In this document: one piece after another, positions 7,236 to 55,200 of the stretch
How the letters are laid out: each line of letters begins with the position of its first letter
Numbering within the stretch: the first letter of the stretch is position 1
Program-made: the position numbers and the translations under genes
Notes under the pieces: model-generated
What the model was told of the DNA's origin: nothing
The model's database searches: none
The model's input: the letters and a program-made list of their open reading frames with translations, nothing else
IMG/VR virus record: IMGVR_UViG_3300010163_000001
Coordinates: 96,001 to 160,000 of that record
Source: a virus
Lineage: Duplodnaviria > Caudoviricetes
Length of the DNA: 64,000 nt
Strand: one strand, 5' to 3'

Positions 7236-7265
7236 AAAACGGAATCTCGTACGAGATTCCGTTTT
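7236..7265 (+). terminator. Intrinsic terminator (perfect 30-bp palindrome)
   Basis: AAAACGGAATCTCGT/ACGAGATTCCGTTTT directly after the stop at 7230. Confidence 0.85.
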
Positions 7266-7283
7266 TCTCCTCTTTTTTCTAAT

Positions 7284-7344
7284 ATATTCTTTTAATAGCT
7301 ATAAGAAAAAATAAAACATAAGGAGGATAAAAGATTATGGCTAA
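7284..7344 (+). repeat. Copy 1 of a ~61-bp promoter-RBS-start direct repeat
   Basis: ATATTCTTTTAATAGCTATAAGAAAAAATAAAACATAAGGAGGATAAAAGATTATGGCTAA, about 4 differences from 17293-17353. Confidence 0.85.
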
Positions 7345-7489
7345 TTTAAATCACAAACAAATGGAAACTTTAGTAAAAGTGTTAAAGGATGCACAGAACA
7401 GCGCAATCGATAAACAGGAGTTCTCACTGCTGGATGATCTCTTTCATATTGAAAAAGTTGTGGAAGAGGTTATCCCAGTAAAAGGATAA
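7337..7489 (+). CDS. Small hypothetical protein, 50 aa (MANLNHKQMETLVKVLKDAQNSAIDKQEFSLLDDLFHIEKVVEEVIPVKG), absent from the ORF track
   Basis: AAGGAGG RBS, promoter-like motif upstream, terminator directly after TAA. Confidence 0.75.
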   Translation: MANLNHKQMETLVKVLKDAQNSAIDKQEFSLLDDLFHIEKVVEEVIPVKG

Positions 7490-7519
7490 GTGGTGACCAT
7501 CTGGGTCACCACTTTTTTT
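7488..7519 (+). terminator. Intrinsic terminator
   Basis: AAGTGGTGACC-ATCTG-GGTCACCACTT followed by a T run. Confidence 0.85.
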
Positions 7520-7521
7520 GT

Positions 7522-10500
7522 TTATAATCTTGAGTCATCTGCAAATGATGGCATATCATCTGTAGGATTATATTTTAATATTTCCTTGGGTTTTATTGTC
7601 CTGGTGGAAATAAGTGCCCATGTCTCTTCTCCTGTTCTATTATCATAGGAATATTCAAATCTTACATTTCCAGGTTCTCCTTTTTTTGTAGGATTAGCAA
7701 AAACTGAAGAACCTATCTTGCTCATTTTGAGATTTTCAAATTTTCCATCCGAATCAATTGGATACCATGCAGATATTTTTTCTATAATAGTATCTTCCGG
7801 TATTGTCTGTAATACCGTGGATGATTCATATTGGAAATACACTTGATGTGAAATATATTCGGATAATTTTGATTTTGGTATTTGATCTCTTATTATTATT
7901 TGAGATGGCTCTGGTTCTTGTAAAAACTCATCAATTAAAGCAGATTCTTGCGCTTTTAACAAAGTTTTAAAATTGTTAATTGTTTCATCTTCTGTAAGTT
8001 CTGTCTTTGTAATAACTGCATCTGTCATATCTTTCGACCATGAAAGAATTTGATCCATTCGAGTGGATAAGTTTGATTCACCATTTGTATTTAAGGATAC
8101 AATGTAAATATAGCAATCATCTGTTTGTCCTATTCGATGAATTCGATCAGAACATTGTTCAAAATCCGCATTTCTCCACGGAGGTCCAAAGAAAAACATC
8201 TGATTTGCTTCCACTAATGTCACACCAGTTCCTAATGTTTGAGAAGTGGCTACTAGTACCATAATGTTATTATTCTCTTTAAATTCTTTTAATATTTCTA
8301 ATCGATTCTTCACATCTCCAGTAATCATAACAGTTCCAATTCCGTTATCATTTAAATCTTTATAAATATGCTCTACTACTCCTTTAAATTGAGAAAAGAT
8401 AAGAGTCTTTTTTGTATTTTCTGTGATCATCTTATAAAATACATCCTTATTCTCAGAATATAAAGAAATGTACATATCCCTTCGATATGGAGGCATAATT
8501 TCTCCATATGCAATTCCTAACCAATGTGCTTTATATCTTACATAATTCTTAATAAGAAAATTATAATAATCTTTATCTTCTTTCTTTTGTATCTTCTTTA
8601 AAACTGCTTTCATGTATTTTTCTACATATATTTGATCTATTTCATGCAAATTCTCATGTTTTCGAACCATAATATCCATAAGATCGATAAATTGATCTGC
8701 ATTCATATCATCAGGAGCATATTTTCTACTCATATCATAGAATGGTTTTCGTAACTCCATCATTTCACTCAAATGTAAGTCATAATAGTAACTAAATTTT
8801 TCAGATACTTCTTTAAATACATTAGATAAAGTGTATTTATCTTTATCTAACGTAGATAATTCTAGTGGAAGTATATGTTTTTCAGGAAGTGTTCCATCCA
8901 ACACATCCTTTTCTTTCCGATACATAATTTTACCAAATCTAGCTTGTACCAAAGATGTTCCTAATGAGGTTTTTAACTTGAAAGCCTTATCAAATATCTT
9001 AGCGGCTTCCATTGTAAAGGTTGGATCGATCATTAATAAAGCAGGAACAATCTCATTTGGTGTTGCTTTAATTGGGGTACCACTCATTACAAGAGTATCT
9101 TTACATTTCAACTTATCTCTTAATTCAATCAATTGATGAACTCTTTTTGATTCTATATTCCTAAAGTTGTGACTTTCATCGACAATTAATATATTTTTGC
9201 CAGACATTACGTATGGAAACATTTTTTCTATAGATTCGTTATTTGTAATAATAAACTTTGTAGTATTTTCATTAAACTTCGTAGGTCTATCGCTACAAAT
9301 GAATACTTCTTGTTTCCATAAATCTTCATCTTGATATTTTTCATAATATTTTTGAATTTCTAATGCCCAGTTTGCTTTTAATGAATTTGGACATACGATA
9401 TATACATGATCAGCGCTAAGGCACTCCGTTAATCCTATCGCAGTTAATGTCTTTCCAAGACCTTGCTCAAATGCCAGGATATATCCTTTCAAATTTAGTT
9501 GTGCTTTTAATCTCGGATAATTTTGAATAAAATCTATCTGATAATCATTCAATGTCAATGTCAAATTCTTTAATTTGGATGTATTTAGTGGAGCAGTAAT
9601 CTGTGCATTTCTATCTGCTTCAGCTAACCAAGAATTCTCATAAATTGTAACAGCAAATGCTTTATAAGTTTTATCTCTGAATCGTTTCCCTAAATCAGTA
9701 AATAATCTTACTAATTCTAAGGCAAAGAACTCTGGAGTATACATATAATCAATTTTAATATCTGCTCTCTGTATTCTCTTCTTTTCAAATCTCTTATATG
9801 ATAATGCATTGTATTTAGGAAGAAAGATATTTCCTAGGGATTTATCTTTATAGTGTCTTGAAATACGTGATTTTAATAATTTATAATTAATCCCCCATAT
9901 TTCAATATAGCCATCTTTAATTTTTACTCCCGTATATCCATAGTTAGCTATTCCACCAACTAAATTCTTCTCACCAAAAATCTTATGATGCCAAGTATCT
10001 AATTCTTCCTGTTTTGATTTGCCTGTAAATAAATCTAAAAATCCTTCTTTTGCTACTTGTACTTCTGAAAAGTCCATAAAGTATTGATGATCACCTTTTG
10101 ATTGAAATCCTAATTTCTCTGCTAATTTTTCAGAAGGTTCATTTCCTTCCTTACGTACTTTCCAATCTAAATAGGTAATATTATTTTCTTTTGCCCATCG
10201 AATTGCTTCATCTACTAAAATACCAGTGAACCCTTGTCTCCGATATTCAGGTTTACAAGCTATACATATAACTGCAGTATTTTTCTCCATATCTGGTAAT
10301 GTATACAGTTCAATGAATGCGGCTGGATCTTTATCTGTTAAAATTACATTTCGATAAATTACATAAGGACTCTTTTTAAAGGTTCCATTACAAATTAAAT
10401 GTAACTCTTCATCTGTTAAAGTTTTTACAATACTTTTTACATGATTAAAATTCTTAGAGAATGAGATAATATTATTTCCAAACCAAGATTCATTTACCCC

Positions 10501-12471
10501 ACCAGTTATTTCTTCTGGTAACATCCCATTCTTTCTGAGGTATTTCTGTAATGCCTGTTGGTGTACTGGATGTAAGTCATGATAAATATTACTGATTTTA
10601 ACCCATCCTAATGTATCAAAATGAGTTTCTTCATCTTCTGGCTTTACATAACCAGTATAATTTCCGTTCCATCTTCCAACATATAGTTCATTATAGTGTC
10701 CATACCACCATTTATCTTTTGGATAATTTTCCCTCATCCAATGTGGTATTTTCTTTCTCCTATTTACATAAGAACCAAAATACTCTACATCTTTTACATT
10801 TTGATGTACTTCTTCTTGTGCTTCCCGAATAGCGGTAGCCATATGGTCTTCTCCTTCATTCCACCCACCACCAGGAAAGTCATATTCTCTCTTTTTCTCA
10901 AATCCTTTTCGTAAATTAACAAGAATCTCTTCTTCATCATTCACAATGATAATTTCGGATCTCCCTCTCAATAACTTATCGGATTTATCACATTTGACAT
11001 AAGAATCTATTTCTCCTTTATAATTGCGATAGTACCATGTCCCTTCAATTAAAATTGAAGAACCATTTTGAGAAAAGAAATATTTATCTTTTGCAGATGA
11101 TTCATTTGCATAATCAAAATCTATCTGAGCATATCTCTTTTCTTTAATTAATTCCATATTTCGTTCCGTAACACTTGGATCATACTTTGAAAAATCTAAT
11201 CCATGATTCACCAATGTAGCATCATCCATATTACAAAAGTCTTCTGGTAAATATAAACTTGGATCTTTATCTATCTCTTTTCCTGCACTAAGTATCTCTG
11301 CACAAAATTCACTGCAAAAATGTTTCGTATCATGATGCGTTTTCTTCTGTAAGAATACAAAGGGCAATCGATAAAATCCATATCGCATCTCTTTTTCTCT
11401 TGCTTTAAATTTCTCAAGTGCTTCATTCATTTTCAAATACATTTGTTTATTCACAAATGTAACGTATACACTATAATATGCCTTTCCCTTCTTTATAAAA
11501 TCAGAAGTAGGATTCATATCTGTTAATCCCATCTTATGTCCAGGCTCATCTTTTAAACCAAAGGAATACATCGGAATTAAAGACGGATTAAATGATATAC
11601 AGACATGAGAAAATTCTGCTTTTGTAATCATTTTTATAGCTGCCATCATTGGAGTCTTATAACTTAACATAATAAAAAAGATAGGATAAGAATTTTCCTT
11701 TGTCCATACTGCTGCTTCAAATGCAATTGCATCAAATTTTCGCTGCTTTACAAGTTCTAAATTTCTTTTTGTAATTTCTGGATCATATTCAATGAAATTT
11801 AGCCCATGATTTACTAATGTAATATCATCTAAGCCAGCAAGATCTTGTGGTTTGTGTAAACTTGGTAACTTGTCCAATTTCCTTCCAGCATTTATAATTT
11901 CTGCAACAAATCTACTGCAGAAGTATTTCTTGGAATGCTCTGATGATCTTTGTAATTGACAACTGATAAGGTTAAAAATGTCAAATTTCCATTCTTTATA
12001 ATGTTCCATGAATTTATTTAAAGTTTCCTGCATCTTATCATATGTCTCTTTGTCTACATACATGACATATACTCCATAATAGGATTGCCATTTATCATAA
12101 TCGCCGGAATCATATGAATTCAATGTCATTCCCATACGACCTTTCCCATCTATATATTCCAATCCGAATGAATATAACGGCTTTAAAGATGGATCAAAAG
12201 AAATTCCTGCATGGGAATATTCATCTTTTGTAACTGCTTTAATTGCGTGTGCTAATGGTGTTCCAGTATGCATCAATACAATAAATACCGGATATTTATT
12301 CTTTTTTGAATAATGTGCTTCTTCTTGAACGATTTCTATATTATTCATGCCATGACAACAAGAAGCACAAGTTTGTGTTTTTTCATATTGCTGGCATAAA
12401 CCAAAGCATTCACAGTTAGAATGCCTCATATTAATAAGAGCGGCTTCTGTTGCTTTAGTTAGCATAAACAA
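7522..12471 (-). CDS. Multidomain polyprotein: Cys-rich leader, 2x permuted papain-like (YiiX/NlpC-P60-type) domain, Nudix hydrolase, GNAT acetyltransferase, SNF2-family helicase
   Basis: YSHAGISFD...FCSRFVAE and FSHVCISFN...FCSEFCAE (His before Cys); Nudix box GGGWNEGEDHMATAIREAQEE; GNAT motif A PEYRRQGFTGILV; SNF2 motifs EQGLGKT, VDESH, SGTP, QCSDRIHRIGQ. Confidence 0.85.
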   Translation of the reverse strand: MFMLTKATEAALINMRHSNCECFGLCQQYEKTQTCASCCHGMNNIEIVQEEAHYSKKNKYPVFIVLMHTGTPLAHAIKAVTKDEYSHAGISFDPSLKPLYSFGLEYIDGKGRMGMTLNSYDSGDYDKWQSYYGVYVMYVDKETYDKMQETLNKFMEHYKEWKFDIFNLISCQLQRSSEHSKKYFCSRFVAEIINAGRKLDKLPSLHKPQDLAGLDDITLVNHGLNFIEYDPEITKRNLELVKQRKFDAIAFEAAVWTKENSYPIFFIMLSYKTPMMAAIKMITKAEFSHVCISFNPSLIPMYSFGLKDEPGHKMGLTDMNPTSDFIKKGKAYYSVYVTFVNKQMYLKMNEALEKFKAREKEMRYGFYRLPFVFLQKKTHHDTKHFCSEFCAEILSAGKEIDKDPSLYLPEDFCNMDDATLVNHGLDFSKYDPSVTERNMELIKEKRYAQIDFDYANESSAKDKYFFSQNGSSILIEGTWYYRNYKGEIDSYVKCDKSDKLLRGRSEIIIVNDEEEILVNLRKGFEKKREYDFPGGGWNEGEDHMATAIREAQEEVHQNVKDVEYFGSYVNRRKKIPHWMRENYPKDKWWYGHYNELYVGRWNGNYTGYVKPEDEETHFDTLGWVKISNIYHDLHPVHQQALQKYLRKNGMLPEEITGGVNESWFGNNIISFSKNFNHVKSIVKTLTDEELHLICNGTFKKSPYVIYRNVILTDKDPAAFIELYTLPDMEKNTAVICIACKPEYRRQGFTGILVDEAIRWAKENNITYLDWKVRKEGNEPSEKLAEKLGFQSKGDHQYFMDFSEVQVAKEGFLDLFTGKSKQEELDTWHHKIFGEKNLVGGIANYGYTGVKIKDGYIEIWGINYKLLKSRISRHYKDKSLGNIFLPKYNALSYKRFEKKRIQRADIKIDYMYTPEFFALELVRLFTDLGKRFRDKTYKAFAVTIYENSWLAEADRNAQITAPLNTSKLKNLTLTLNDYQIDFIQNYPRLKAQLNLKGYILAFEQGLGKTLTAIGLTECLSADHVYIVCPNSLKANWALEIQKYYEKYQDEDLWKQEVFICSDRPTKFNENTTKFIITNNESIEKMFPYVMSGKNILIVDESHNFRNIESKRVHQLIELRDKLKCKDTLVMSGTPIKATPNEIVPALLMIDPTFTMEAAKIFDKAFKLKTSLGTSLVQARFGKIMYRKEKDVLDGTLPEKHILPLELSTLDKDKYTLSNVFKEVSEKFSYYYDLHLSEMMELRKPFYDMSRKYAPDDMNADQFIDLMDIMVRKHENLHEIDQIYVEKYMKAVLKKIQKKEDKDYYNFLIKNYVRYKAHWLGIAYGEIMPPYRRDMYISLYSENKDVFYKMITENTKKTLIFSQFKGVVEHIYKDLNDNGIGTVMITGDVKNRLEILKEFKENNNIMVLVATSQTLGTGVTLVEANQMFFFGPPWRNADFEQCSDRIHRIGQTDDCYIYIVSLNTNGESNLSTRMDQILSWSKDMTDAVITKTELTEDETINNFKTLLKAQESALIDEFLQEPEPSQIIIRDQIPKSKLSEYISHQVYFQYESSTVLQTIPEDTIIEKISAWYPIDSDGKFENLKMSKIGSSVFANPTKKGEPGNVRFEYSYDNRTGEETWALISTRTIKPKEILKYNPTDDMPSFADDSRL

Positions 12472-12478
12472 ATCCTCC

Positions 12479-12901
12479 TTATTTAATATATTTTACTAAA
12501 TCTTTAGTACTGCCAATCCACTTCATGGTATAATCTGCCGCTTTATCGGAATTTACGAATAGGACTCCTAAAAATTTCCCAAGATAACGGTTATTCACAC
12601 TAATAACAGTATATACGTATATGTTACCAATCTTTTTTACTCCTAACATTTTATGATCAGGACTATTTATCACAGCGTTTTCAACATGTTCTCTCAATTC
12701 AGGAATAATCGGCTTACAATCCGACGCACGAACGTTCAATTTATCTTCCATGTAATCTGGAACATACTTTATTAAATCCTCAATTTCGTATTTTTTACTT
12801 AATTCGTTAAGTCTCTTTTTCTCTTTCATTTTATTAATTAGTCCCTCATTTGCAATAACCATGTTATTGCAATATGAGATAAAATCAGTCATTTGATTCA
12901 T
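12479..12901 (-). CDS. Putative head/internal protein with shared N-terminal propeptide (FISYCNNMVIANEG)
   Basis: N-terminus shared with 13929..15260 and 32245..32772; GAGGTG RBS. Confidence 0.65.
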   Translation of the reverse strand: MNQMTDFISYCNNMVIANEGLINKMKEKKRLNELSKKYEIEDLIKYVPDYMEDKLNVRASDCKPIIPELREHVENAVINSPDHKMLGVKKIGNIYVYTVISVNNRYLGKFLGVLFVNSDKAADYTMKWIGSTKDLVKYIK

Positions 12902-12935
12902 ACGTTAAATCACCTCTATTCTTATAGGAAAGTAT

Positions 12936-13904
12936 TTATTCATAAACGAAAAGGTCTATAAAAATATGCCCTTCGTCTCCATCTCCAGTCCCAACTTCTA
13001 AATTAAATTCATCAGAACCTTCTATCATAGTAAGGGGTTCTTTTCCATAGTCTTTTCTAAGAGCATTACCTAGAGCTTTCATTCTTATACCCTCTGTTGC
13101 AGGGATCATACTATCTTCATATTCAAAATCAACTTGATCAAATTGTTTATTTCTTACAAGTTTCATATTACGTTTTGTAACTTTTGGATTGTATTGATAA
13201 AAATCAAATCCATGATTCACTAACGAAATATCATTTAATTCTGATAAATCACTAGGTCTAGTAATGGAAGGATCTTTTCCAATATCTTTGCCGGAATTTA
13301 AAATTGTAGCAACTAATTCACTACAAAACATATAGTTTGTTTCTTTTCTCTTCTTAATTTGTAAAGCACCTCTTGTAACTATTCCGATCACTGCAAACCC
13401 ATAATCATTCTCATTCTCAAGAAAATATTCCATTTTCTTTTTCATTTTGTCTCTTGTAGCTTTATCCACATACATGACATACACGCTGTAGTATGTCTTG
13501 ATATCTTTATAATATTTTGATTTTGGAGTTGTTTTTCTTATTCCTAAACGATTATCCGGATTTTCTTCTTTTGAATTAGCTCCCATAGTATAACAAACTT
13601 TTAAATCTGGTTCAAATGCAATCATTGCATGAGTAAATTCGCTCTCTGTAAACTTCTTCGTCAAAATACTTAATCCTATTCCAGTATAAGTTAGAATTAT
13701 AAAGATAGGATATTTATTTTTCTTAGACCAGTCTGCTTCTTCTGTAACCACCCCATAATATGGATTAGTTACAATTGACTGTTCCAAACCAGCTTGACAA
13801 GCGGCACAATGACCGACTTGTTCAAACTGTTGACATAAACCAAAGCACGGACATTTAGAATGTCTAGCATTGATTATCTCTTTTTTAGCTTCGTTTGATA
13901 ACAT
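12936..13904 (-). CDS. Cys-rich leader plus permuted papain-like domain protein
   Basis: RHSKCPCFGLCQQ leader shared with the 1649-aa ORF; FTHAMIAFE...FCSELVA; paralogous domain end NHGFDFYQYNPKVTKRNMKLV. Confidence 0.75.
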   Translation of the reverse strand: MLSNEAKKEIINARHSKCPCFGLCQQFEQVGHCAACQAGLEQSIVTNPYYGVVTEEADWSKKNKYPIFIILTYTGIGLSILTKKFTESEFTHAMIAFEPDLKVCYTMGANSKEENPDNRLGIRKTTPKSKYYKDIKTYYSVYVMYVDKATRDKMKKKMEYFLENENDYGFAVIGIVTRGALQIKKRKETNYMFCSELVATILNSGKDIGKDPSITRPSDLSELNDISLVNHGFDFYQYNPKVTKRNMKLVRNKQFDQVDFEYEDSMIPATEGIRMKALGNALRKDYGKEPLTMIEGSDEFNLEVGTGDGDEGHIFIDLFVYE

Positions 13905-13928
13905 AAATAAATAGCCCCCTAAATAATA

Positions 13929-15260
13929 TTAATATTCAAAATCTATATTGTCAAAATTCTGTTGTCTTACCAATTTCATATTTTTCTTTGTCACTTCTGG
14001 GTCATAATCATAGAAATCATATCCATGATTTACAAGTGAAATATCTTCTAACTCAGTAAGATCTCCAGGTCTAGTGATAGATGGATCTTTATGACCTTTA
14101 TCACCAGCTTTTAGTATCTCTGCAACTAACTGACTACAGAAGAATTTAAAGTTAGGGTCTTTTTTCTTAATCTGTAATCCTCCTCCGGTAATCAATCCTG
14201 CTTGTGCGAATTTAATATCTTTCTCGTGTTCTGCAAAATACTTAACTTTATTCAGCATTTTATCTCTTGTGGCTTTATCTACATACATTACGTATACGCT
14301 ATAATAGGTACCTTTTTTAATTATTTCTCTATAATAATAGGATTTTGGTCCGAAATGAACTAAACCGTATTTATCACTACCTTTGTATCTTCCACCACCA
14401 AATTCATCTTTCAGTCTCTCAGACATAGACCAACATTGATTCAATTCTGGGTCAAACGCAATCATCGCATGAGAGAATTCACTTCCTGTAAATGGTTTAA
14501 TTACCATGGATAATGGTCCACCTGTATAAGTGAATATAAGAAAAATTGGATATCTATTTTTATGAGACCACGTTGCTTCTTCTGTTGCAGGAGTTGAATT
14601 TGCTGCTAATGCATATTTATCCATGATTTTATCCATAGTATCAATACTTAAATCAAATTGAATACGAATTAAATAATCAGCGTCATATACTTTCTCTCCA
14701 GAATGTGGTTCCAATAATTTCGCATCTTTATCAGTTCTTGAAAAATTATATACAGCATCACTAATTGCGATTATAAAATCGTCTATAACGTTTTCCGTTT
14801 CATCGTATTCTTCCCGAGATAATTTACATGTCCATTCATCGAGCTGTTTGATACAATAATAGTTTCCAAACCATTTTTCTACCTTTGGTGTTTCAATATT
14901 ATCCTTTATTACTTTATATTTTGGGTCATTTAATAATTTCTTCATAAATTGAAGTGTTTTATTTGCGATTCTTAAATTAATAGAATCTTCTAATTCTTTT
15001 ATCTTATTTAGTCCTTTTTTACTACCTTCTACCCCATATTTATGACGATAATCACTTGGTACATAATCTTTACCATATTTATCCTCTAATTTTCCTTCCC
15101 TTTTTAAGTCCTTAAGGTTTTTACGAAAAGCTTTAAAAGATCTTTTTCCGTTTTCATCTCCCAATCCAGCAGCTATTAGAATATCAAGCATTCCTGTTTT
15201 TTCATTAGCAACTTTCATACTATCACAGTATGATATAAATTCACTAACTTGATTATCCAT
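13929..15260 (-). CDS. Propeptide plus unknown domain plus permuted papain-like domain protein
   Basis: FISYCDSMKVANE leader; TPATEEA junction; FSHAMIAFD...FCSQLVAE. Confidence 0.75.
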   Translation of the reverse strand: MDNQVSEFISYCDSMKVANEKTGMLDILIAAGLGDENGKRSFKAFRKNLKDLKREGKLEDKYGKDYVPSDYRHKYGVEGSKKGLNKIKELEDSINLRIANKTLQFMKKLLNDPKYKVIKDNIETPKVEKWFGNYYCIKQLDEWTCKLSREEYDETENVIDDFIIAISDAVYNFSRTDKDAKLLEPHSGEKVYDADYLIRIQFDLSIDTMDKIMDKYALAANSTPATEEATWSHKNRYPIFLIFTYTGGPLSMVIKPFTGSEFSHAMIAFDPELNQCWSMSERLKDEFGGGRYKGSDKYGLVHFGPKSYYYREIIKKGTYYSVYVMYVDKATRDKMLNKVKYFAEHEKDIKFAQAGLITGGGLQIKKKDPNFKFFCSQLVAEILKAGDKGHKDPSITRPGDLTELEDISLVNHGYDFYDYDPEVTKKNMKLVRQQNFDNIDFEY

Positions 15261-15272
15261 CTATAAATCACC

Positions 15273-17237
15273 TCATTTTCGTTTTAAAAATAGGGTATTG
15301 TAATTATCAATACCTATTTTATATTTACTACTATCAATAATTTCTTTTAAATCTTTTGCAATCTTTTTATATTCAGAGTGGGATATGATAAATAAAGAAT
15401 TAGATTCTCCTGAATTAAATTTCTTTAAACCCCAATCTCCATTTGGTTTAATTCCGGACTTATAATTATGATCTGAGAAATATTTGTTTATTACAGTAAT
15501 TACATCATCTTCTTTGGAAGTAGATGATTCTGATGCATTTGTTAACATCTTTACTTTAAAATATTTTCTGTACATTTGAAGTTTTTCCTCTACTTCCTTC
15601 ATTCTTTTCAAATTCCATGTAAATGAATCAATTCCGTCTTTAATACCTTTATATTCTGGTATATCTCGTTTCGTTGCTCGTAATAAACTCTTTATTCCAC
15701 TCGTTCCTTTTATATAAACCGCATAATCTTGTAATAATTCTGGGGAGATAAATTCATAAAACCAAATTCCCTCCAGTACGAACTTTCTATCTTTATGAGT
15801 CTCTGCAAACCTAAGTACAAAATTAGTAAACGCTAAAGTAATCTTTTTATCAAAATCCTTTAAATCTGGATTACCACAAATTTCTCCTAACGGGACTCTA
15901 AATTTCTTACCTATTTTATCTTTAAATAAAAACTTATGGAATAAATCCCATTTCTTATATGGCCCTCCATACGTTTTATAATATTCTTCCGAATATTCAT
16001 CCTGATATATCAATAGATCTACATCGTAATGTTCTGCGACATCCGACATATCTTTACCCATTGTGGATTTTCCACTTCCTGAATATCCTGTGATAAAACA
16101 GATATTCGTCTCTCCAGAATCGAATTTATCTTTATTATAATAAAAGTCCTCTTCATCAAATACATAGGACTCTGTTGCTTTATCTTTCACCCAATCTTCA
16201 TCTGGATCAGCACTATTTTCTAATTCCCATTTCTTTTGTGCTTCTCTAGCATTTGATACTACCGGATTAGATTTCTTATCCCCATATATCCCGTTTCTAG
16301 TCATACTTGCTCCATCTGTAACAATAAAGAAATTAGCGTTATATTTCTTTCCAATTTTATCTACATCTTGTAGAAACTTTCTTGCTTCATTAACATTCTT
16401 ACATGATTCAGAAGCAACTGCTAATGTTTCTCTTGAATTCTCATCTTTTTCTTCTGGTATTTCTTCTTTGGCTTTCATGAGAAACTCAAAGAATTCCGTA
16501 AAGTTATTATCATTAATCTTTAAGTATCTTACATTTTTATTGCTAGCCATTACTTCATCTTTTAGTTTTTCTTTCACACGATTAATATCATTGAATGCTT
16601 TATTTGTAGAAGTTTGTTGTTTAATTTCAATCTCTAAGTTTAAACTTGGGATATAAAAATCTGGTATGTAAAATTTTCTACCCCAATTCTTCTTATCATC
16701 TTTTGGATTCTCATAATCGTAATAGTAAATATGTGGAGATGGTGATATCAAATCATTAGAATCCCATTCCATCATAGTATTCAACATTTCTAAAAAGTTT
16801 CTTTCATATTGTCCAACATATTCAAATTTCGTTCCATCATCAAAAGTGTATTTACCACTGATCTTTCGATTAGAAACCATTTTCTTTTGAATATTTGGAT
16901 CATCTAACAAATGTTCTTTTCCATACTTTCCTACCATTCTGCTTTTTGCTAATTTTACATAAGCTTTTTTACATTCTGGATTTGTACAATACTGGTCATA
17001 TTTCCAACTATTTTCATTCCATGGAGTAGGACCCTTACAAGTTCTACAAATTCCATGTGTTTTCCCAGTCATCGTGAAATAGAAATATCTCGCTACAGAA
17101 TAACCTTCTGGTCTAAGTCCGGGATGCATTTTATCAATATGATCCCCCCACCCATTTAAAGTTTTAAATTTCTTATTACAGGATGGACATTTATAATATT
17201 TCACTGTCATCATCGAAATATTCACACATCCTTTCAT
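15273..17237 (-). CDS. Zn-finger plus PD-(D/E)xK-like nuclease plus P-loop kinase-like multidomain protein
   Basis: CPSC..H...H C2H2 finger, CRTC...CTNPEC, YIPDFYIPSLNLEIEIK nuclease motif, ITGYSGSGKST Walker A. Confidence 0.65.
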   Translation of the reverse strand: MKGCVNISMMTVKYYKCPSCNKKFKTLNGWGDHIDKMHPGLRPEGYSVARYFYFTMTGKTHGICRTCKGPTPWNENSWKYDQYCTNPECKKAYVKLAKSRMVGKYGKEHLLDDPNIQKKMVSNRKISGKYTFDDGTKFEYVGQYERNFLEMLNTMMEWDSNDLISPSPHIYYYDYENPKDDKKNWGRKFYIPDFYIPSLNLEIEIKQQTSTNKAFNDINRVKEKLKDEVMASNKNVRYLKINDNNFTEFFEFLMKAKEEIPEEKDENSRETLAVASESCKNVNEARKFLQDVDKIGKKYNANFFIVTDGASMTRNGIYGDKKSNPVVSNAREAQKKWELENSADPDEDWVKDKATESYVFDEEDFYYNKDKFDSGETNICFITGYSGSGKSTMGKDMSDVAEHYDVDLLIYQDEYSEEYYKTYGGPYKKWDLFHKFLFKDKIGKKFRVPLGEICGNPDLKDFDKKITLAFTNFVLRFAETHKDRKFVLEGIWFYEFISPELLQDYAVYIKGTSGIKSLLRATKRDIPEYKGIKDGIDSFTWNLKRMKEVEEKLQMYRKYFKVKMLTNASESSTSKEDDVITVINKYFSDHNYKSGIKPNGDWGLKKFNSGESNSLFIISHSEYKKIAKDLKEIIDSSKYKIGIDNYNTLFLKRK

Positions 17238-17292
17238 ATTTAAATATCTTATTAATTAGTTCAACTTCCGTGTTTTACCTATTTAGATAAAG

Positions 17293-17353
17293 ATATTCTT
17301 TTAGTAGCTATAAGAAAAAATAAAACAATAAGGAGGATAAAGTTTATGGCTAA
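17293..17353 (+). repeat. Copy 2 of the ~61-bp promoter-RBS-start direct repeat
   Basis: ATATTCTTTTAGTAGCTATAAGAAAAAATAAAACAATAAGGAGGATAAAGTTTATGGCTAA. Confidence 0.85.
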
Positions 17354-17777
17354 AATACAATATAAAGAAGTTTTTACAGCAAAGGGTGGCGTACCAACTC
17401 TTAAATTGGTTATACCGCCGGATGAAAACGACCCCGAATCATATGAAGGTTACTTAACACCTTTCCGCTGCTACAGATTCCAAGTATCCAAGGATGTGCA
17501 TGGTTCAGGAGACTATGGATCATCAGCAGTCATTGGATTGAAACATATTATGACGATAAGGTCTGGTGAAAAAGGACCAGGGTGGCAATCTAGCTGTAAT
17601 TTGGAAGAAACATGCAAAGAATTATTGCTTGGTCAGGCAATGATTGCAATTGCTAATTGGGCAGCAGGCATGGGAGCGGTTATGGCCGTAGCTCCAACTA
17701 GGCGTGAAAATTTTGTAGAAAAAACGCTGATTGGACAATTTATCGATCAGTGTTACGATTGGATTAAGAGTGTATAA
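17346..17777 (+). CDS. Hypothetical protein in a standalone plus-strand cassette
   Basis: 143 aa, AAGGAGG RBS, own promoter-like leader and terminator. Confidence 0.75.
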   Translation: MAKIQYKEVFTAKGGVPTLKLVIPPDENDPESYEGYLTPFRCYRFQVSKDVHGSGDYGSSAVIGLKHIMTIRSGEKGPGWQSSCNLEETCKELLLGQAMIAIANWAAGMGAVMAVAPTRRENFVEKTLIGQFIDQCYDWIKSV

Positions 17778-26576: not shown

Positions 26577-26657
26577 TTTTTAATATTTGAATGTTGATTT
26601 CACAATGAAATAATATATATGTCTAATAAAAAAGTAAAAAAATAGGTGCGTACGCAC

Positions 26658-32244: not shown

Positions 32245-32772
32245 ATGGATAATTCATATGCTATTGAAAGTTTTATTGAATATTGTGATGGTATGATGAT
32301 TGCAACAGAAGGAGTAAAAGAAGGATTTGAAAAAGTAAAAGCTTGGTTGATAAAACAGTTCACAAAACTAATAAATGCAATTCATGGGTGGGTACGCAAA
32401 AAGCAGCTCAAACATAATATAAAAGATACTATTAACAATAAAATGGGTGGATCAGCGTTAGCACATGCTTATGATGCATTAGATGGGTTATTGGTAAGAT
32501 GCAAAGCTGGTTTAGCGAAATCAAAAGCTCTTAATAATCAGAATCCAGAATTAGCAGAACAATTAAAACAAGAAGTAGAATTCTGCTCCAAAATATATAA
32601 AGAACAACTTAAAATATTAAATGGCAATATTGAGGCTGGTCAAGATATAGTTAGTGGTAGTGGTTATAAATACAATGATAAAGAAATGAGCAAATTAAAA
32701 AGAAATCAAAAACGAATACAAAAGAGAGATGATAAGTTAAAAAAATCAATGGAATCTTACATGATATATTAA
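32245..32772 (+). CDS. Putative head/internal protein with shared propeptide (FIEYCDGMMIATEG)
   Basis: AAGGAGG RBS, AACT-N6-TA motif at 32191-32202, leader shared with 12479..12901 and 13929..15260. Confidence 0.7.
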   Translation: MDNSYAIESFIEYCDGMMIATEGVKEGFEKVKAWLIKQFTKLINAIHGWVRKKQLKHNIKDTINNKMGGSALAHAYDALDGLLVRCKAGLAKSKALNNQNPELAEQLKQEVEFCSKIYKEQLKILNGNIEAGQDIVSGSGYKYNDKEMSKLKRNQKRIQKRDDKLKKSMESYMIY

Positions 32773-49240: not shown

Positions 49241-52200
49241 TTATTTCTTTGCAATTGCTTCATGTATTTTTGTCAATGACATCTTTGAATAATCCTTATC
49301 AGATTTACTTGAAGATGTTTTATATGTCCTTGGTAACTTAGTATTCCCGTTTCCATAAGAAACGACTGTATTGTTATTTGTAACACTATTATATGACATT
49401 TCTTTGTTATTTTTTTCTTCTCTTTCTACAAACGTCTTTAATACATCTATAATTGTATCCATCTTACTCTCAATATCTCTTGTATTAAGAGCAACTGTTA
49501 ATTTCTCTTTTACTTGTGAATTGGTATTCATTGTTCCAGAACCATATCCAATATCTTCTTCTGTTTCATATTTTTTAGTATCGTATTTATAACTCGTTGG
49601 ATCTATTGTAGAGTTATGACTATCATTTCTTCTTAATTCATAATGTAAATGACTTCCAGTTGACTTACCAGAAGAGCCAACTTTTCCTATTACGCTATCT
49701 TTATACACATGTGTTCCTGGACCATACCCTACTGGTTCATCCATATGCGCAAATAAATGCTGTGTCCCGTCATTGTCTTTTACAACTGCATAGTTACCAT
49801 AACCAGCAACATCAGTACCTGTTGAAATAACATCTCCTTCTATTGGGGATTTAATATCAGTACCATAAGGTGCTCCAATATCCAGACCCCTATGAAACTC
49901 GCTTCCTAATTCTGAATTTCTATGTCCATACCCAGAAGTTACGATTCCTCCAAGAGTATTTGTAAAGTATCCCTCTGGAGTGTCCATGTTCTTATTTGAT
50001 GGTCCGGGACCAAATCCTATAAGATTCTGATTATATGCTCCTGCGACTTCATTTAATCCTCCAAGTAGGGCATCCAGTCCGCTACCCGCTTTTACTACAC
50101 CAGAGCTTCCTGTATTACCACTATTTGTATTGGTATAATTAGTACCTGAATTAGCTACTGATAAATTGTTAATTGCTGCAGATCCACCTTCTGGAGATCT
50201 CCATACTACAGTATATGCTGATCTACTACTATGAGTAATTCCCGGATTATTTACAGATGAATTAGATCCACAATTGTAAACCATATTTGTATTTCCATCT
50301 CGTCCTGCAAATATTTCCGTATGTCCACTAATTACTAAAATATCTCCTGGAACTAGATTTGTCCATCCAGTCCATGGCATATAAGTAAATCCTGAATTTG
50401 TGAGTAAACTATTATTAGATGATAATAATCCGCTAGAACTTGTTAAGAAATCCTGTCCTGTATAATAAGATACACAAGCACTTACAAATCCAGAACAGTC
50501 AGTTCTAACAGATTTTTGTATACCACCTACATTTATTGTGATATAATTGCTTTGTGAATATCCAGGCTGTTGTGCAGCGATTGCTTGTTTTACAGCTTGT
50601 ACAATATTTAACCATGGTGCTCCATAACCAATTGCTTTAGATTTTCCTAATATATTATATCTCAAATAAGACGACTTACCCGGTCCATAGGAAACATTTG
50701 CAGAGGTCGTATTATTTGATGCAACCATAGTATTATTCCCACCGCCATATCTAGCAAGCCAACTATTTGAATATCCAATACGTTCATTTTCTTCTCTAGT
50801 GCTTTGGTCAGCCGGTTGTTCATATACATGTAACATATCATTAGATGCTTTTGATACATCATTTGTTGTAGTTAAGGTATTCAAAAGGGATGGATATCCT
50901 TGAAGTTCATCTTTAAAATATTGAACCTGAGCACTAATATCCCCGACAGAAAGTCCCTGTCCGTGAGCTTTGTCAACTAAACCTTTCTTTCTTGACCAAT
51001 ATGTCCATTGTGCTAATCCATAACCTTTCTTATCATGAATAAAGGAGTCTGGATTCGCATCTGCATTCTTCGTATACTCTTTTGATTTTTCATATCCACT
51101 ACTAAAGTCTCCTTGTACTCTAACTGCATGATTTCCAGATTCTTTCTGCCAGTTACCCATAACACCTGCAGCACCAGCAGGAGTAAATCCTACTTTTATA
51201 AGTTCATTCCAAATATATCCTGTTTCATCATTTGCATCTGTTAATGCATAACTACCACCAGATGCAGTTGTATCTCCACTATTGTCAGGAGACAAATCCA
51301 TTAATTGTATAAGTGCATTTTGTTTTGCTTTTTCATAGTCATCACCTGAAGCCTGTGCAGAAATTGCAAATCCTATTGCTTGTAACTTTTGAGAAACTGT
51401 TGCATTACTCGTATCTACATTCATTGTATCTGATGAATTTGTAAGCATGGTATATCCCGTATTTTGTGGAGAGTTAACCATATAGCCACCAACTCCATCA
51501 GTTGCATAATTTACTCCAGAAACTTTTGGAGTTACCGTATATCTTGAATCTGTTTTTGTATTCACTCCGGATGGGACACCGTACTTCTTCCCTATGGAAA
51601 GAGCACCATTTCTCATCATTGCAACTATACCTTGTCCGGCACCATTGGATTTTAATCCATTTGTCATTGCTACACTAGCTACTGCAGAAGCAGCCTTCTT
51701 AAAGGCTTTATTTCCAGTTCCGATTCCATATCCTACATTTAACGTAAATGGTCCCTTTGAATTTCCACTAGGAGTGGGTTTTGCAAATGGATTGTTTTTA
51801 AAGAACGGACTATTTGCAGTTTTCTTTTTATTTGTGTTTATTTGCTGTTGAAATACCTTAGCTGCATTTTTCTTAACTTCAGGTGAGATATTACCAACAA
51901 CAGAATCTTTTTCGTAATTTATTCCAGAAACTTTCGGAGCTGTATGATAAGAATATGGCATACCCATTTCATACATTTTCTTTGCATATGCAATCTTTTG
52001 TGTTACAATTGTATTGTAATTTTCATAATCAGGAGTTCCAGGTGGCGCTCCTGCATATTGAAGTTCATCTGTAAATTGTGTTGTCAATGCCATAATTCCT
52101 TGCTCTGTGAGCTGGAACTTCTTTATTGCTTCTTCAACAGTTTTTGGATCATTGCTTGTCAATCCTGCTTTTTCAGCAGCTTCTGCAGCTCCTTTATTTG

Positions 52201-55200
52201 TTGCATTGGCTTTTGGGTCAACCATATAGCCACCCACAGAATCTTTTTCATAATTTATTCCAGAAACCTTCGGATCACTTATATTTGCAGTTGCTCCTGC
52301 AGCGACACCTATACCAGAATTATCAGCACCAGATTCATCAAATGGATTAACTTCTTTAATAGAACGATATTCTTTTCCTCCCATTAAAGCGTCCATCATA
52401 TGTTCAAAAACCGCTGTAAAGTTATTGAATATAGCACCTATTTTTCCAGTAAGTCCTTCTGCCTCAGAAACGGATTGGTAATCGGATGTTCCTCCCACTT
52501 TGTTGCTAAAATCTACTGGACCACTGATTCCTTCTCCATTTGGCCCTGTAACTACATATGCACTCTTAATTGCATTCTTCTGTCCTACTTTATCTTTCAA
52601 TCTCTTAACATTAAATACAGATGGTTGTTCTAATGTTGTAAACGGGTCATTTACTGCAAGATAATCTCCTTGCGCTGCTCTAGCTACTAATGTTCCATAA
52701 GAATCTGGATTGCTATCATCAAGAGCAGATGCATTTTCTGGATGATTTTTACCATCTGCAGTATATCTCCAATCTGTATTGGTGTTAAAAGCACCAATAT
52801 TGTTATATTCTCCTTTATCATAGAATCCATTAAAAATAGATCCATTGTAACGATAACCTGTTAGTACAACAGGTTTATTACTTCTAAGCGCATTAATAAC
52901 TGAATCCATAGATTCTAGTTTCTTAACTTGTAATCTTTTTCCATCAACTTGAGTTTCTCTTAATGCATTGAAACCACCGTCTTGATAGATCGTGTCTTGG
53001 TTCAATCCAGTACCGGGTGAAGACCATCCAGTATATCGTCCATCCAACCAATTAGAATTAATATAATCCGGAGTGATGATATTATTTCCAAATGCACTAG
53101 ACACCATTGCAAGCGATGCTAAATCTCCTCCACGGAATCTAACTGTAGATCCTCTCCATGGTATATTACTCCATCTTGGATCATCTGTCTGGAAAAATGG
53201 GAACCCATTCTTATATTCGAAAGAATCACCATATGTTCCAAAACCACCAAACATTTCTGATAGTTCTTGTTTCCCCTTAATTCCTTCTAGTTCAGATGTT
53301 GTAATTACATGATTGTCTTTATAATCACCAGAATCGACAAATAAATAGTATACTTCTCTAAAAAGAGGAATTCTGCCATCAGATAACAGATCTTTCTTAT
53401 AAGTAACCATATTTTTGATATCTTTTACTTTTAATCCATTATAAAAGTCGATTCTATTAAATCCATACTCACCATTTGTCTGAGTGAGACCAGATGCAAT
53501 CTTACGTTGCATTCTTACAGCAGTATTTAATGTTGCCCCTTTCAAATTCGAAGTAATATCAGTATTCAAATAATAACTCGAATTTCCATATATTTCTGCA
53601 ACAGTAGCATTTGATTTTGCTTTCTTATAATTAGCAAATGCATTATTTGCCACAGTTGCTCCCAATTTTGCTAAATCTATTGCAGATTTAGTAGCAATAA
53701 CACCAGGAGTCGTTTTCTTAGAAGGCTTTATCGCCCTCCCATTAGAATCTGTTACTTTTATATCTATTCCACTAGCTTCTTTTTCTGCTTGCGCATTTCC
53801 ATTAAGATATTCATAAAAACTATCGGGTAATCTCCCCTGTGTTCCTTCTTTGATTAAATTATTTTCGTCCTTTAAATTCTCTAGATCGTATCTATTATCC
53901 ATCTTTCTATATGTAATCGAATTATCACCTTCAATTACATAATAATAGTCATCTCCGTATTTAAACCATGGTAAATCTTCATCCCCAGGTCCAAAACCTA
54001 AAGATTTGCTTGGTTTCCATTTTATTTTAGCAGAACCAGTGCCAAAACCAATGGAACCTTTCTTTTTGTATTGATCTGTATACCACTCTGCCAATGATAA
54101 GTTTCCACCGTTAGCTTTATACGAATCATAAGCCCGATGTTCTTTTTCTGTAATTGCATAAGTATCTTGTAAATTGTAAATGTTATTCCATTCTGTCATA
54201 TCTCCGCCAGATATTTTTGCTCCTACCCATGAGAAACCTTTTTGAACCTGACCAAATATTCCAGCATCTTTATTTGATTTATTATTCCAATCGTTAACAG
54301 TTAAATTCGTACCATTGATTGCATTATATTTTGCAACCTGTGCTTCAAATTCATCTGTTGCAGTATCTAATTTTTCTTTATCAAAGAATGTACTGTATAA
54401 CCACCTAGCAACAATCTGTTTTATATCCCATTGTGGATTGATCATACTGATAATTTCAAGTACAAGGTCAACACAAGATGCTCCTGGTAAACCTAATAAA
54501 ACTTGAAGTACCGATGATATTGTTTTCATTTCCCATGTAACATCATGTTTTGCAATACCAAATAATCTAGCTGCAGATGTCCAACCATCTACACCATCAT
54601 AAACTGCTCCTATAATTAGTGGAATAATTGCTGCTGATGCACCAGTTCTTATAGATATTTCTGCTAATTTTTGTGAAATTTCATTAGCAATTGCAGAAAT
54701 AGTACTAACTGGACATCTTCTCACCATACTTATGATTTTTTCTCCAAATCGTTTGATTCCATCGCTCCAATCTCTTGATGAAAACCATGCTGCAAATCTA
54801 TCTCCATATTTTGCTGCAAATTTAACAAATTGATTTATTACTTTATTAATCAAAGTAATTGGATGTACACTCGTAGCATCTATAATCCCAGCATTCACAG
54901 CAGCATCTTTAGCTGTCATTGTTGTATCATAAATGTCATACATATTAGAAGCTTTATCACTTATATTAACAATATCACTTGCAGCCCCATATCCAACTGC
55001 CTTTCTTCTGTAACTCCATCCATGTGTCATTCCGGATGTCAAATTACTAAGTTTCTCTGTTCTAGTTCCTCTCATCGGATCATTAATTCTTACATTTCCA
55101 TTGTTATCAATGCCAGAAGCAACTACAATATGACCTGCTTTTGTATAAGGTCCATTCATAGAAGACTTTCCAGACACAATAACCGGTTCTCCACTTTGGA

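Follow-up and report, generated by a model that had tools for sequence, protein, structure and literature searches.

To our knowledge, very few injected phage proteins are known outside T4, P1, N4 and a few giant phages. This text concerns a cluster of five packed genes at 7522–17237, on the minus strand of a 64,000-nucleotide (nt) stretch of viral DNA (IMG/VR record IMGVR_UViG_3300010163_000001). The stretch, called the window below, comprises bases 96001–160000 of a 254,592-bp source contig with inverted terminal repeats and 31% G+C. The five genes encode chains of unrelated modules, at whose borders a glutamate motif recurs. They are interpreted here, with a probability of about 0.6, as a split polyvalent protein that would be cut by the prohead protease, packaged and injected with the DNA.

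The closest described concept is that of the polyvalent proteins, which are predicted to be packaged, injected and processed by peptidases, including assemblin-like ones (Iyer et al. 2017, PMC5512222). As described there, the proteins of this cluster place unrelated enzyme domains, including SNF2 ATPase, GNAT and Nudix-type domains, in one phage polypeptide and are extensively mosaic. However, the peptidases in that account are of the zincin-like MPTase, assemblin-like, DD and LonC kinds, whereas the hub here is a YiiX/C92 papain-like domain; the terms 'papain-like' and 'NlpC' are absent from that article, and none of the four peptidase kinds was found in the chain proteins by Pfam or PHROG. 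Two further differences are that the chain here is split over five genes and that no DNA methylase partner of SNF2 was found. An earlier, sequence-only reading of the window had proposed a plug-and-play architecture in which unrelated takeover or anti-defence domains are strung on cleavable linkers. That idea is not new in kind, being the 'polyvalent protein' concept of PMC5512222; searches within that article found no explicit cut-site motif at every junction. What appears new relative to it is the C92 hub, the split over five genes, and an explicit conserved junction grammar shared with a putative loading leader. In the literature, no paper was found on such junction sites in jumbo-phage cargo chains.

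The junction motif itself has its nearest parallel in the substrates of giant-phage prohead proteases (phiKZ gp175, SPN3US gp245 and 201phi2-1). These are cut after Glu in a small/aliphatic-x-Glu context, with Val or Ile preferred at P4 and Ser at P1′; their propeptides are 20–24 residues long, several sites per protein are possible, and the products are ejection proteins. The phiKZ protease also uses S-x-E. In contrast to these substrates, the sites in this cluster would part whole enzyme domains, P3 may also be Val or Ile, and the phage is AR9/PBS1-like, with only about 26–28% identity in core proteins. The measured specificity of SPN3US gp245 is A-X-E with P4 Val and P1′ Ser, and it removes propeptides of 20 and 24 residues from two proteins (PMC10052503). 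In T4, the internal proteins are loaded by a short capsid-targeting sequence that is removed by gp21 (PMC5694885). T4 IPI-III and Alt carry an N-terminal tag ending in Glu on unrelated cargo, which is removed by the head protease before the cargo is injected with the DNA. The candidate tag here differs in length (~20 residues) and in sequence (FxxYC[DN]..M.I-A-x-E) and stands within the chain in one relative, whereas T4 cargo is single-domain. P1 DarB/Dar offers a large helicase-containing protein that travels in the phage head and, once injected, shields the entering DNA, but here no methyltransferase domain and no Dar partner genes were identified. Within the same lineage, AR9 gp077 (an HD hydrolase plus a virion RNA polymerase (RNAP) subunit) is annotated in GenBank as proteolysed, with only the RNAP domain in virions. 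Its junction, just before the RNAP domain, holds I-S-E↓S, I-K-E↓S and L-L-E↓A (the arrow marks a putative cut), but gp077 has two modules only.

The chain genes and their modules

The cluster is transcribed in the order P0004, P0003, P0002, P0005, P0001, with gaps of 12–35 nt. Its genes and modules are as follows (aa, amino acids).

15273–17237, minus strand: gene 1, P0004, 654 aa as listed, four modules; PHROG 15137 and 2071
P0004 residues 9–274: module 1, C2H2 Zn-finger and DUF7487 nuclease-like part (Pfam DUF7487, 33 bits)
P0004 residues 278–353: module 2, a small module
P0004 residues 357–567: module 3, P-loop NTPase
P0004 residues 571–654: module 4, C-terminal module ending NTLFLKRK-stop
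13929–15260, minus strand: gene 2, P0003, 443 aa; leader, orphan middle part, and C92-like domain ending exactly at the stop codon
15201–15260, minus strand: leader of P0003, residues 1–20, ending V-A-N-E
12936–13904, minus strand: gene 3, P0002, 322 aa; short N-terminal peptide (ending S-N-E↓A), Cys knuckle, C92-like domain at residues 56–262, 51-residue tail
12479–12901, minus strand: gene 4, P0005, 140 aa; leader of ~19 residues (12845–12901) ending I-A-N-E↓G, then an orphan domain
7522–12471 as listed, minus strand: gene 5, P0001, 1649 aa; Cys knuckle, C92a, C92b, Nudix, GNAT, SNF2 helicase, and a C-terminal module that may be SET-like

The true start of P0004 is most likely Met9, at 17213, and that of P0001 most likely Met3, which gives 7522–12465 and 1647 aa. 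P0005 is part of the cluster although it was missing from the list of the sequence-only reading, whose four open reading frames (ORFs) and 13 named motifs were all recovered in place. The cluster comprises roughly 14 modules: a nuclease-like Zn-finger, a P-loop NTPase, four YiiX/C92 domains, Nudix, GNAT, an SNF2 ATPase, a SET-like candidate, two Cys knuckles and several orphans. Both P0001 and P0004 join at least two disparate activities in one phage polypeptide.

The Nudix, GNAT and SNF2 assignments made from the letters alone held, all being above the Pfam cut-offs in P0001 (Nudix 507–642, GNAT 706–795, SNF2 984–1220, Helicase_C 1344–1448). Long helicase and methylase families are also matched by the SNF2 region, namely PHROG 62 and, weakly, PHROG 11801. 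At its C-terminus, P0001 has ~140 residues (window 7525–7944, minus strand) of SET-like appearance (..NVRFE..ISTRxIKPxE.L). The SET profile PF00856 does not match P0001 in Pfam, and in three homologs it reaches 14–19 bits where 22.4 is the cut-off, aligning with nothing but its last third. There is an Atlas lead scoring 0.81; a PDB sequence search with the module gave no match. The module may thus be SET-like, as a sub-threshold lead only. If so, SET-like, SNF2 and GNAT modules would form a chromatin-modifier-like trio in a phage cargo protein.

The domains that had been called papain are indeed papain-like but permuted, with His preceding Cys, and are YiiX/C92-like, whereas the module that had been called a kinase can be identified only as a P-loop NTPase. 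Four C92 copies occur in the cluster and none elsewhere in the genome, and all four keep SH and FCS. In P0002, H92 and C194 are invariant in 39 sequences, the order of the two indicating circular permutation. The profile PF05708 (Peptidase_C92, YaeF/YiiX) matches the ortholog P0006 at 27.1 bits against a cut-off of 27, and does not match P0002 itself at E up to 1. In the AlphaFold model of P0002, the predicted confidence score (pLDDT) exceeds 90 in the core (60–260) and falls below 50 at 42–51 and 265–274. A Foldseek search with this model returned 3kw0 as the best match (probability 1.00, E=1.6e-3, TM 0.55 by target), followed by 2if6, which is E. coli YiiX; no match was at E≤0.001. By exhaustive profile search, the C92-like domain is present in 726 clusters at 50% identity (274 at E≤1e-10), in proteins of 124–2424 aa and at any position within them. 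A Pfam CRISPR_Cas2 match in P0006 (residues 335–364, 27 bits against a cut-off of 23.8) is probably spurious, as it covers only 30 residues inside the second C92 domain. We know of no endopeptidase activity in the YiiX/C92 family.

Junction motif, module shuffling and leader

The sites at the module borders of the chain proteins, all on the minus strand, are given below (P0001 in 1649-aa numbering).

12445–12453: P0001, ATE, residues 7–9
12322–12330: P0001, VQE
11716–11724: P0001, AFE, residues 250–252
11101–11109: P0001, ANE, residues 455–457
10489–10497: P0001, VNE, residues 659–661
10045–10053: P0001, AKE, residues 807–809, before the SNF2 module
7945–7953: P0001, AQE, residues 1507–1509
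13740–13748: P0002, VTE, residues 53–55 (V-T-E↓E)
13092–13100: P0002, ATE, residues 269–271 (P-A-T-E↓G)
End of the P0003 leader: ANE, residues 18–20
14580–14588: P0003, ATE, residues 225–227 (P-A-T-E↓E, residues 224–227), before the C92-like domain
16407–16415: P0004, ASE, residues 275–277 (A-S-E↓S); the homology of the next module starts at residues 273–278
16170–16178: P0004, ATE, residues 354–356 (A-T-E↓S), before the P-loop module
15528–15536: P0004, ASE, residues 568–570 (A-S-E↓S)

Every module would bear such a site, [P/I/V]-[A/V/I]-x-E↓[S/G/A/E], where it begins on the N-terminal side. Module borders were defined independently of this motif, as breakpoints in BLAST all-against-all comparison with shuffled relatives. 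These breakpoints fall at ~45, 250, 470, 665, 800, 1505 and 1630 in P0001 and at ~265–280, 355 and 568–580 in P0004, coinciding with the sites of the sequence-only reading, whose placement of motifs at domain junctions is therefore borne out. The motif phi-x-E-[SGAE] is present at 8/8 borders of the chain proteins (per-window background 0.20) and [AV]-x-E-[SG] at 4/8 (background 0.062).

Crude counts of A-x-E are less telling. P0001 has 12 against 5.3 expected and P0004 has 5 against 2.1, an excess of ~2.3-fold, and [AV]-x-E occurs about once per 130 residues in this proteome. Seven of the 12 sites of P0001 fall within folded domains (the Nudix box has one), showing that A-x-E alone is no junction mark; the sites ahead of C92 domains may be structural. 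The enrichment test that had been suggested was run on 39 related proteins with border windows of 28 residues: [AV]-x-E-[SG] was found at 40 of 3973 border residues and at 107 of 53,235 residues elsewhere, a 5-fold difference (p=4e-14), and the same pattern with Asp or Lys replacing Glu had zero occurrences at borders. When similar windows were collapsed, the motif remained in 36/128 border windows against a 6.2% background. Among 176 relatives (≤50% identity), outside the C92 domain, the motif occurred 372 times where 135 were expected from composition; the remaining proteins of this phage had 79 against 65 expected. In the same 176 relatives, Glu alone was enriched at P1 (2.66x, every other residue ≤1.2x), Val, Ala and Ile at P3 (2.0–2.4x) and Ser at P1′ (2.7x), with Pro and Ile enriched at P4 and Met, Thr, Gln and Asn at P2. 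The refined site suggested by these frequencies is [P/I]-[V/A/I]-x-E↓[S/G/A], consistent with the preference measured for SPN3US gp245, and on these figures linker composition cannot yield such a specificity pattern.

The predicted structures agree in part with exposed sites. In P0002, pLDDT below 50 at 265–274 places P-A-T-E↓G (268–272) inside a linker, and V-T-E↓E (53–56) lies directly after another. In the AlphaFold model of P0001 residues 1–1000, pLDDT dips at 36–48, 252–257 and 447–482, matching VQE, AFE and ANE. In these parts of the two models, small/aliphatic-x-Glu sites are thus found in exposed regions.

A comparison of orthologs, likewise suggested by the sequence-only reading, located domain shuffling at the motifs. 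A search with P0001 residues 1–900 retrieved 32 metagenomic proteins of 947–2545 aa, in which SNF2, Nudix, GNAT, HAD, DUF362, AAA and phosphatase domains stand in varying order; a related-locus search with P0037 as query gave no match. Each P0004 module turns up elsewhere in the chains of relatives. In 13 relatives, which differ upstream in having GNAT, C92 or another module, the SNF2 module has [IV]-A-x-E↓[GS] ahead of it, followed by a hydrophobic Lys-rich stretch (..KKK); in the variable linkers before it, an additional one or two P-[VA]-x-E↓S sites are frequent. As a negative control, stand-alone SNF2 homologs on other viral contigs have no junction sites except the DESH helicase box. These control proteins, on three IMG/VR contigs (L015–L017), are 634–655 aa long, have 32–36% identity to the SNF2 module and lack flanking modules. 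The Cys knuckle (H-x-x-C-x-C...C-x-x-C), N-terminal in P0001 and P0002, is internal in five relatives, with x-x-E↓S on both sides.

Gene ends in this phage also correspond to module ends in relatives, e.g., P0003 stops at the end of its C92 domain. From the P0004 end NTLFLKRK, five relatives read on into x-I-A-T-E-E-A and a C92 domain, and four relatives start with the P0004 N-terminal module (MMKVKYY) and run into Nudix and SNF2 as one protein. In the complete relatives P0028, P0034 and P0037, the junction motifs are kept with no C92 domain in the chain. As judged from these alignments, modules are swapped, fused and split at the motifs, and each motif stays attached to the module that follows it.

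The same motif ends a leader of ~20 residues, M..(E/D).F(I).YC(D/N)..M.I-(A/V)-x-E, which is shared by the N-termini of ~14 proteins of the genome. It is mostly followed by Gly and an amphipathic stretch, and the protein bodies behind it are unrelated. The leader is a candidate capsid-loading tag. Its sites are listed here.

Window 12845–12901: leader of P0005
Window 15201–15260: leader of P0003
Window 32245–32310: leader
Genome, outside the window: 553, 3873, 5326, 25321, 32927, 34929, 37903, 59880, 61498, 62088 and 174653

A fragment at genome position 23172 resembles a decayed copy of the leader. The P-loop module of P0004 has a stand-alone paralog (genome 37882–38529, plus strand, 27% identity) behind the shared leader. 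The two copies align from the site onward, ..D-I-G-N-E↓G-Y-I-F.. in the paralog against ..D-K-A-T-E↓S-Y-V-F.. in P0004, showing that one and the same module can follow the leader in one protein and a different module in another, the Glu keeping its place in the alignment. In the relative P0026, the leader is internal to the chain, immediately before the SNF2 module. In the first 100 kb of AR9, a search for the FxxYC leader found only gp077 similar, indicating that the leader is not a general AR9 feature. AR9 gp077 (L002 12476–13400) has L-V-Q-Y-C-D near its N-terminus, which recalls the leader.

The motif extends to the head proteins. By homology, the phage encodes a head-maturation protease of the T4/phiKZ class (MEROPS S77/S80), located as follows.

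Genome 241521–242378: head-maturation protease; tblastn match to AR9 gp113, PHROG 3014 at 4e-13, PHROG 207 at 2e-10

The Pfam profile Peptidase_S77 (PF03420) has no match in the genome. The capsid protein reads S-V-A-N-E↓A three residues ahead of its conserved body. When the 252 predicted proteins were ranked by excess of [AV]-x-E-[SGA], a scaffold-like protein came first, P0004 third and P0001 seventh, and the top 17 include a match to a PHROG 'virion structural protein', the protease and the capsid protein. The first-ranked protein, of 461 aa, has seven [AV]-x-E↓[AGS] sites and is probably a scaffold or core protein; it has no PHROG match. This protein (genome 223639–225024, minus strand, locus L011) has very acidic ends, a basic middle and repeats of ~30 residues (DPITTKPGSIG type) arranged as two triplets. 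In seven related viral contigs (L003–L009), a C92 gene lies 4–6 kb from the capsid-protein gene.

AR9 late promoters have the consensus AACA-N6-TW. A similar site precedes the cluster.

17249–17261, minus strand: AAC-N7-TAA promoter-like site, 24 nt upstream of the listed P0004 start

This site resembles the AR9 late consensus, and a near-identical one (AACTTATTAATAA) lies ahead of the head-protease gene. The AR9-like early core TATATTAT, by comparison, was found upstream of 24 genes here and is absent before this cluster.

Readings of the junction sites

Under the split-polyvalent-protein reading, the chains would be made together with the head proteins and would enter the prohead, P0003 and P0005 carrying the shared leader. 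The T4/phiKZ-class head protease would then cut after Glu, and the freed enzymes would remain with the packaged DNA and be ejected into the next host, where they could act before any phage gene expression. The chains are probably cut in the capsid, since almost every joint carries the glutamate motif of giant-phage head proteases. Several points weigh against this reading. Cleavage, the protease responsible, packaging, injection and host roles are all inferred from sequence comparison. The AAC-N7-TAW pattern is loose, being present at 70/252 genes, so the late-promoter call is weak. The equivalent slot in AR9 holds small genes only, with early promoters. P0004, and the fused relatives that start with its first module, have no recognisable leader. 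All known SPN3US cuts except the protease's own remove N-terminal propeptides and do not fall at internal junctions (PMC10052503). In the statistics, homologous junctions were counted repeatedly, so the p-values overstate independence. In the model of P0001 residues 1–1000, C92a, C92b and the pre-SNF2 parts are confident, but Nudix and GNAT have pLDDT below 50, probably because the shuffled relatives align badly. The form phi-x-E-E-A ahead of C92 also occurs in 34 N-terminal copies, only 4–8 residues from the start of the chain, and in P0002 the pre-C92 motif is modelled as coil (pLDDT ~75) running into the first strand. Because the motif is kept even where C92 stands at the very N-terminus, it may belong to the fold there, and the pre-C92 motif (four of the thirteen sites) may be structural, as the first residues of the domain.

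This last observation is also what a reading without any cutting would expect. If the chains were ordinary multidomain proteins made in the infected cell, phi-x-E-[SG] would be an N-terminal cap or linker that travels with its module, in line with its place among the first conserved residues of each module, its presence in N-terminal C92 copies where no cut is needed, the position of the cluster among replication and transcription genes, and the leaderless P0004 and fused relatives. However, the same cap would then be required on such unrelated folds as SNF2, P-loop, GNAT, Nudix, Zn knuckle and orphans, and tandem extra sites are seen within variable linkers. The shared leader ends in this very motif and the head-protein sites match it too, and its preference for Glu over Asp suits a protease better than linker composition. 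Uncut chains are therefore considered unlikely. That the border motifs are a chance product of A- and E-containing sequence, as the seven intradomain sites of P0001 and the frequency of [AV]-x-E in the proteome could suggest, is very improbable: the enrichment is 3- to 5-fold and specific for P1 Glu and P1′ Ser/Gly, the motif is conserved in relatives with different neighbouring modules, and the family-wide statistics refute it.

If the chains are cut, their own C92 domains, acting in cis or in trans in the manner of the polyproteins of RNA viruses, are another possible agent, and cutting could then be cytoplasmic, with no capsid needed. C92 is the hub of the family (726 clusters, any position) with four copies in the cluster, its catalytic pair of His and Cys never varies, the N-terminal border of the domain itself is marked by a conserved phi-x-E-[EAS]-A, with Glu in 86% of the 129 copies that are internal, and PMC5512222 predicts that polyvalent proteins process themselves through a hub peptidase that they contain. 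Nevertheless, self-cutting is quite improbable, since the motif is also found where the leaders of ~14 unrelated proteins end, in the scaffold-like protein and in the capsid propeptide, since the C92-free chains P0028, P0034 and P0037 retain their junction motifs, and since cutting after Glu with a small P3 residue is the measured habit of giant-phage prohead proteases. The prohead protease thus stays the preferred agent.

Setting of the cluster and its meaning

The genome carries split RNA-polymerase beta subunits, PhuZ-like tubulin, topoisomerase II, DnaB, Dda, SbcD, UvsX and NAD ligase among its core genes. The nearest annotated phages are Bacillus AR9, PBS1 and Goe21, Listeria LPJP1 and Staphylococcus S6, at a protein identity of only 26–30%, and the minus-strand gene order parallels AR9 from 1 to ~80 kb. 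The phage, which is uncultured, is a jumbo phage of the AR9/PBS1 type, though a distant one. Neither the region, searched with megablast, nor P0002, searched with tblastn, had a match among 50,697 GenBank phage records, a collection that holds no annotated close relative. The cluster is bordered by the non-virion RNAP beta gene and the ligase, in the midst of replication and transcription genes. A hairpin follows its last gene.

7488–7514, minus strand: terminator-like hairpin with an 11-bp stem, just 3′ of P0001

This hairpin would end a five-gene unit of ~9.8 kb. A direct repeat of ~100 nt (window 7257–7360 and 17266–17369, plus strand; 74% identity, with a nearly identical core of ~60 nt) flanks the whole 10-kb cluster. 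Its copies contain a promoter-like stretch, an AAGGAGG ribosome-binding site and ATGGCTAA, and head two unrelated small plus-strand genes. The repeat could be a cassette border or permit loss of the cluster via recombination. The 8-mer TATATTAT, usually as ATATATTATT, occurs 40–55 nt upstream of many genes (in the window, e.g., at 26617, 29192 and 32134, minus strand). In AR9, the early promoters that are annotated (AAATATATATTAT) have this 8-mer as their core, which suggests that the virion RNAP promoter is conserved despite ~27% protein identity. The window also holds an ORF of 4549 aa (49241–62890, minus strand).

More generally, it is tentatively proposed, at somewhat less than even odds, that giant phages of several lineages share a portable cargo grammar. 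Modules flanked by [P/I]-[V/A/I]-x-E↓[S/G] could be moved, fused and split, a tag of ~20 residues would load them, and one head protease would free a dozen or more enzymes; C92 would be a major injected effector, with a host-envelope lipid or peptide bond as its possible target. If the grammar is real, the C92-like domain, with its 726 clusters, would represent a large unexplored effector family, the free exchange of unrelated enzymes between phages would be explained, and capsid cargo could be predicted from sequence alone in uncultured jumbo phages. If cutting occurs as proposed, the role of the prohead protease would be widened from trimming propeptides to freeing whole enzymes from polyproteins. 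Proteins that are injected together with the DNA act before the phage genes are read, and are thus the first line of host takeover and counter-defence.

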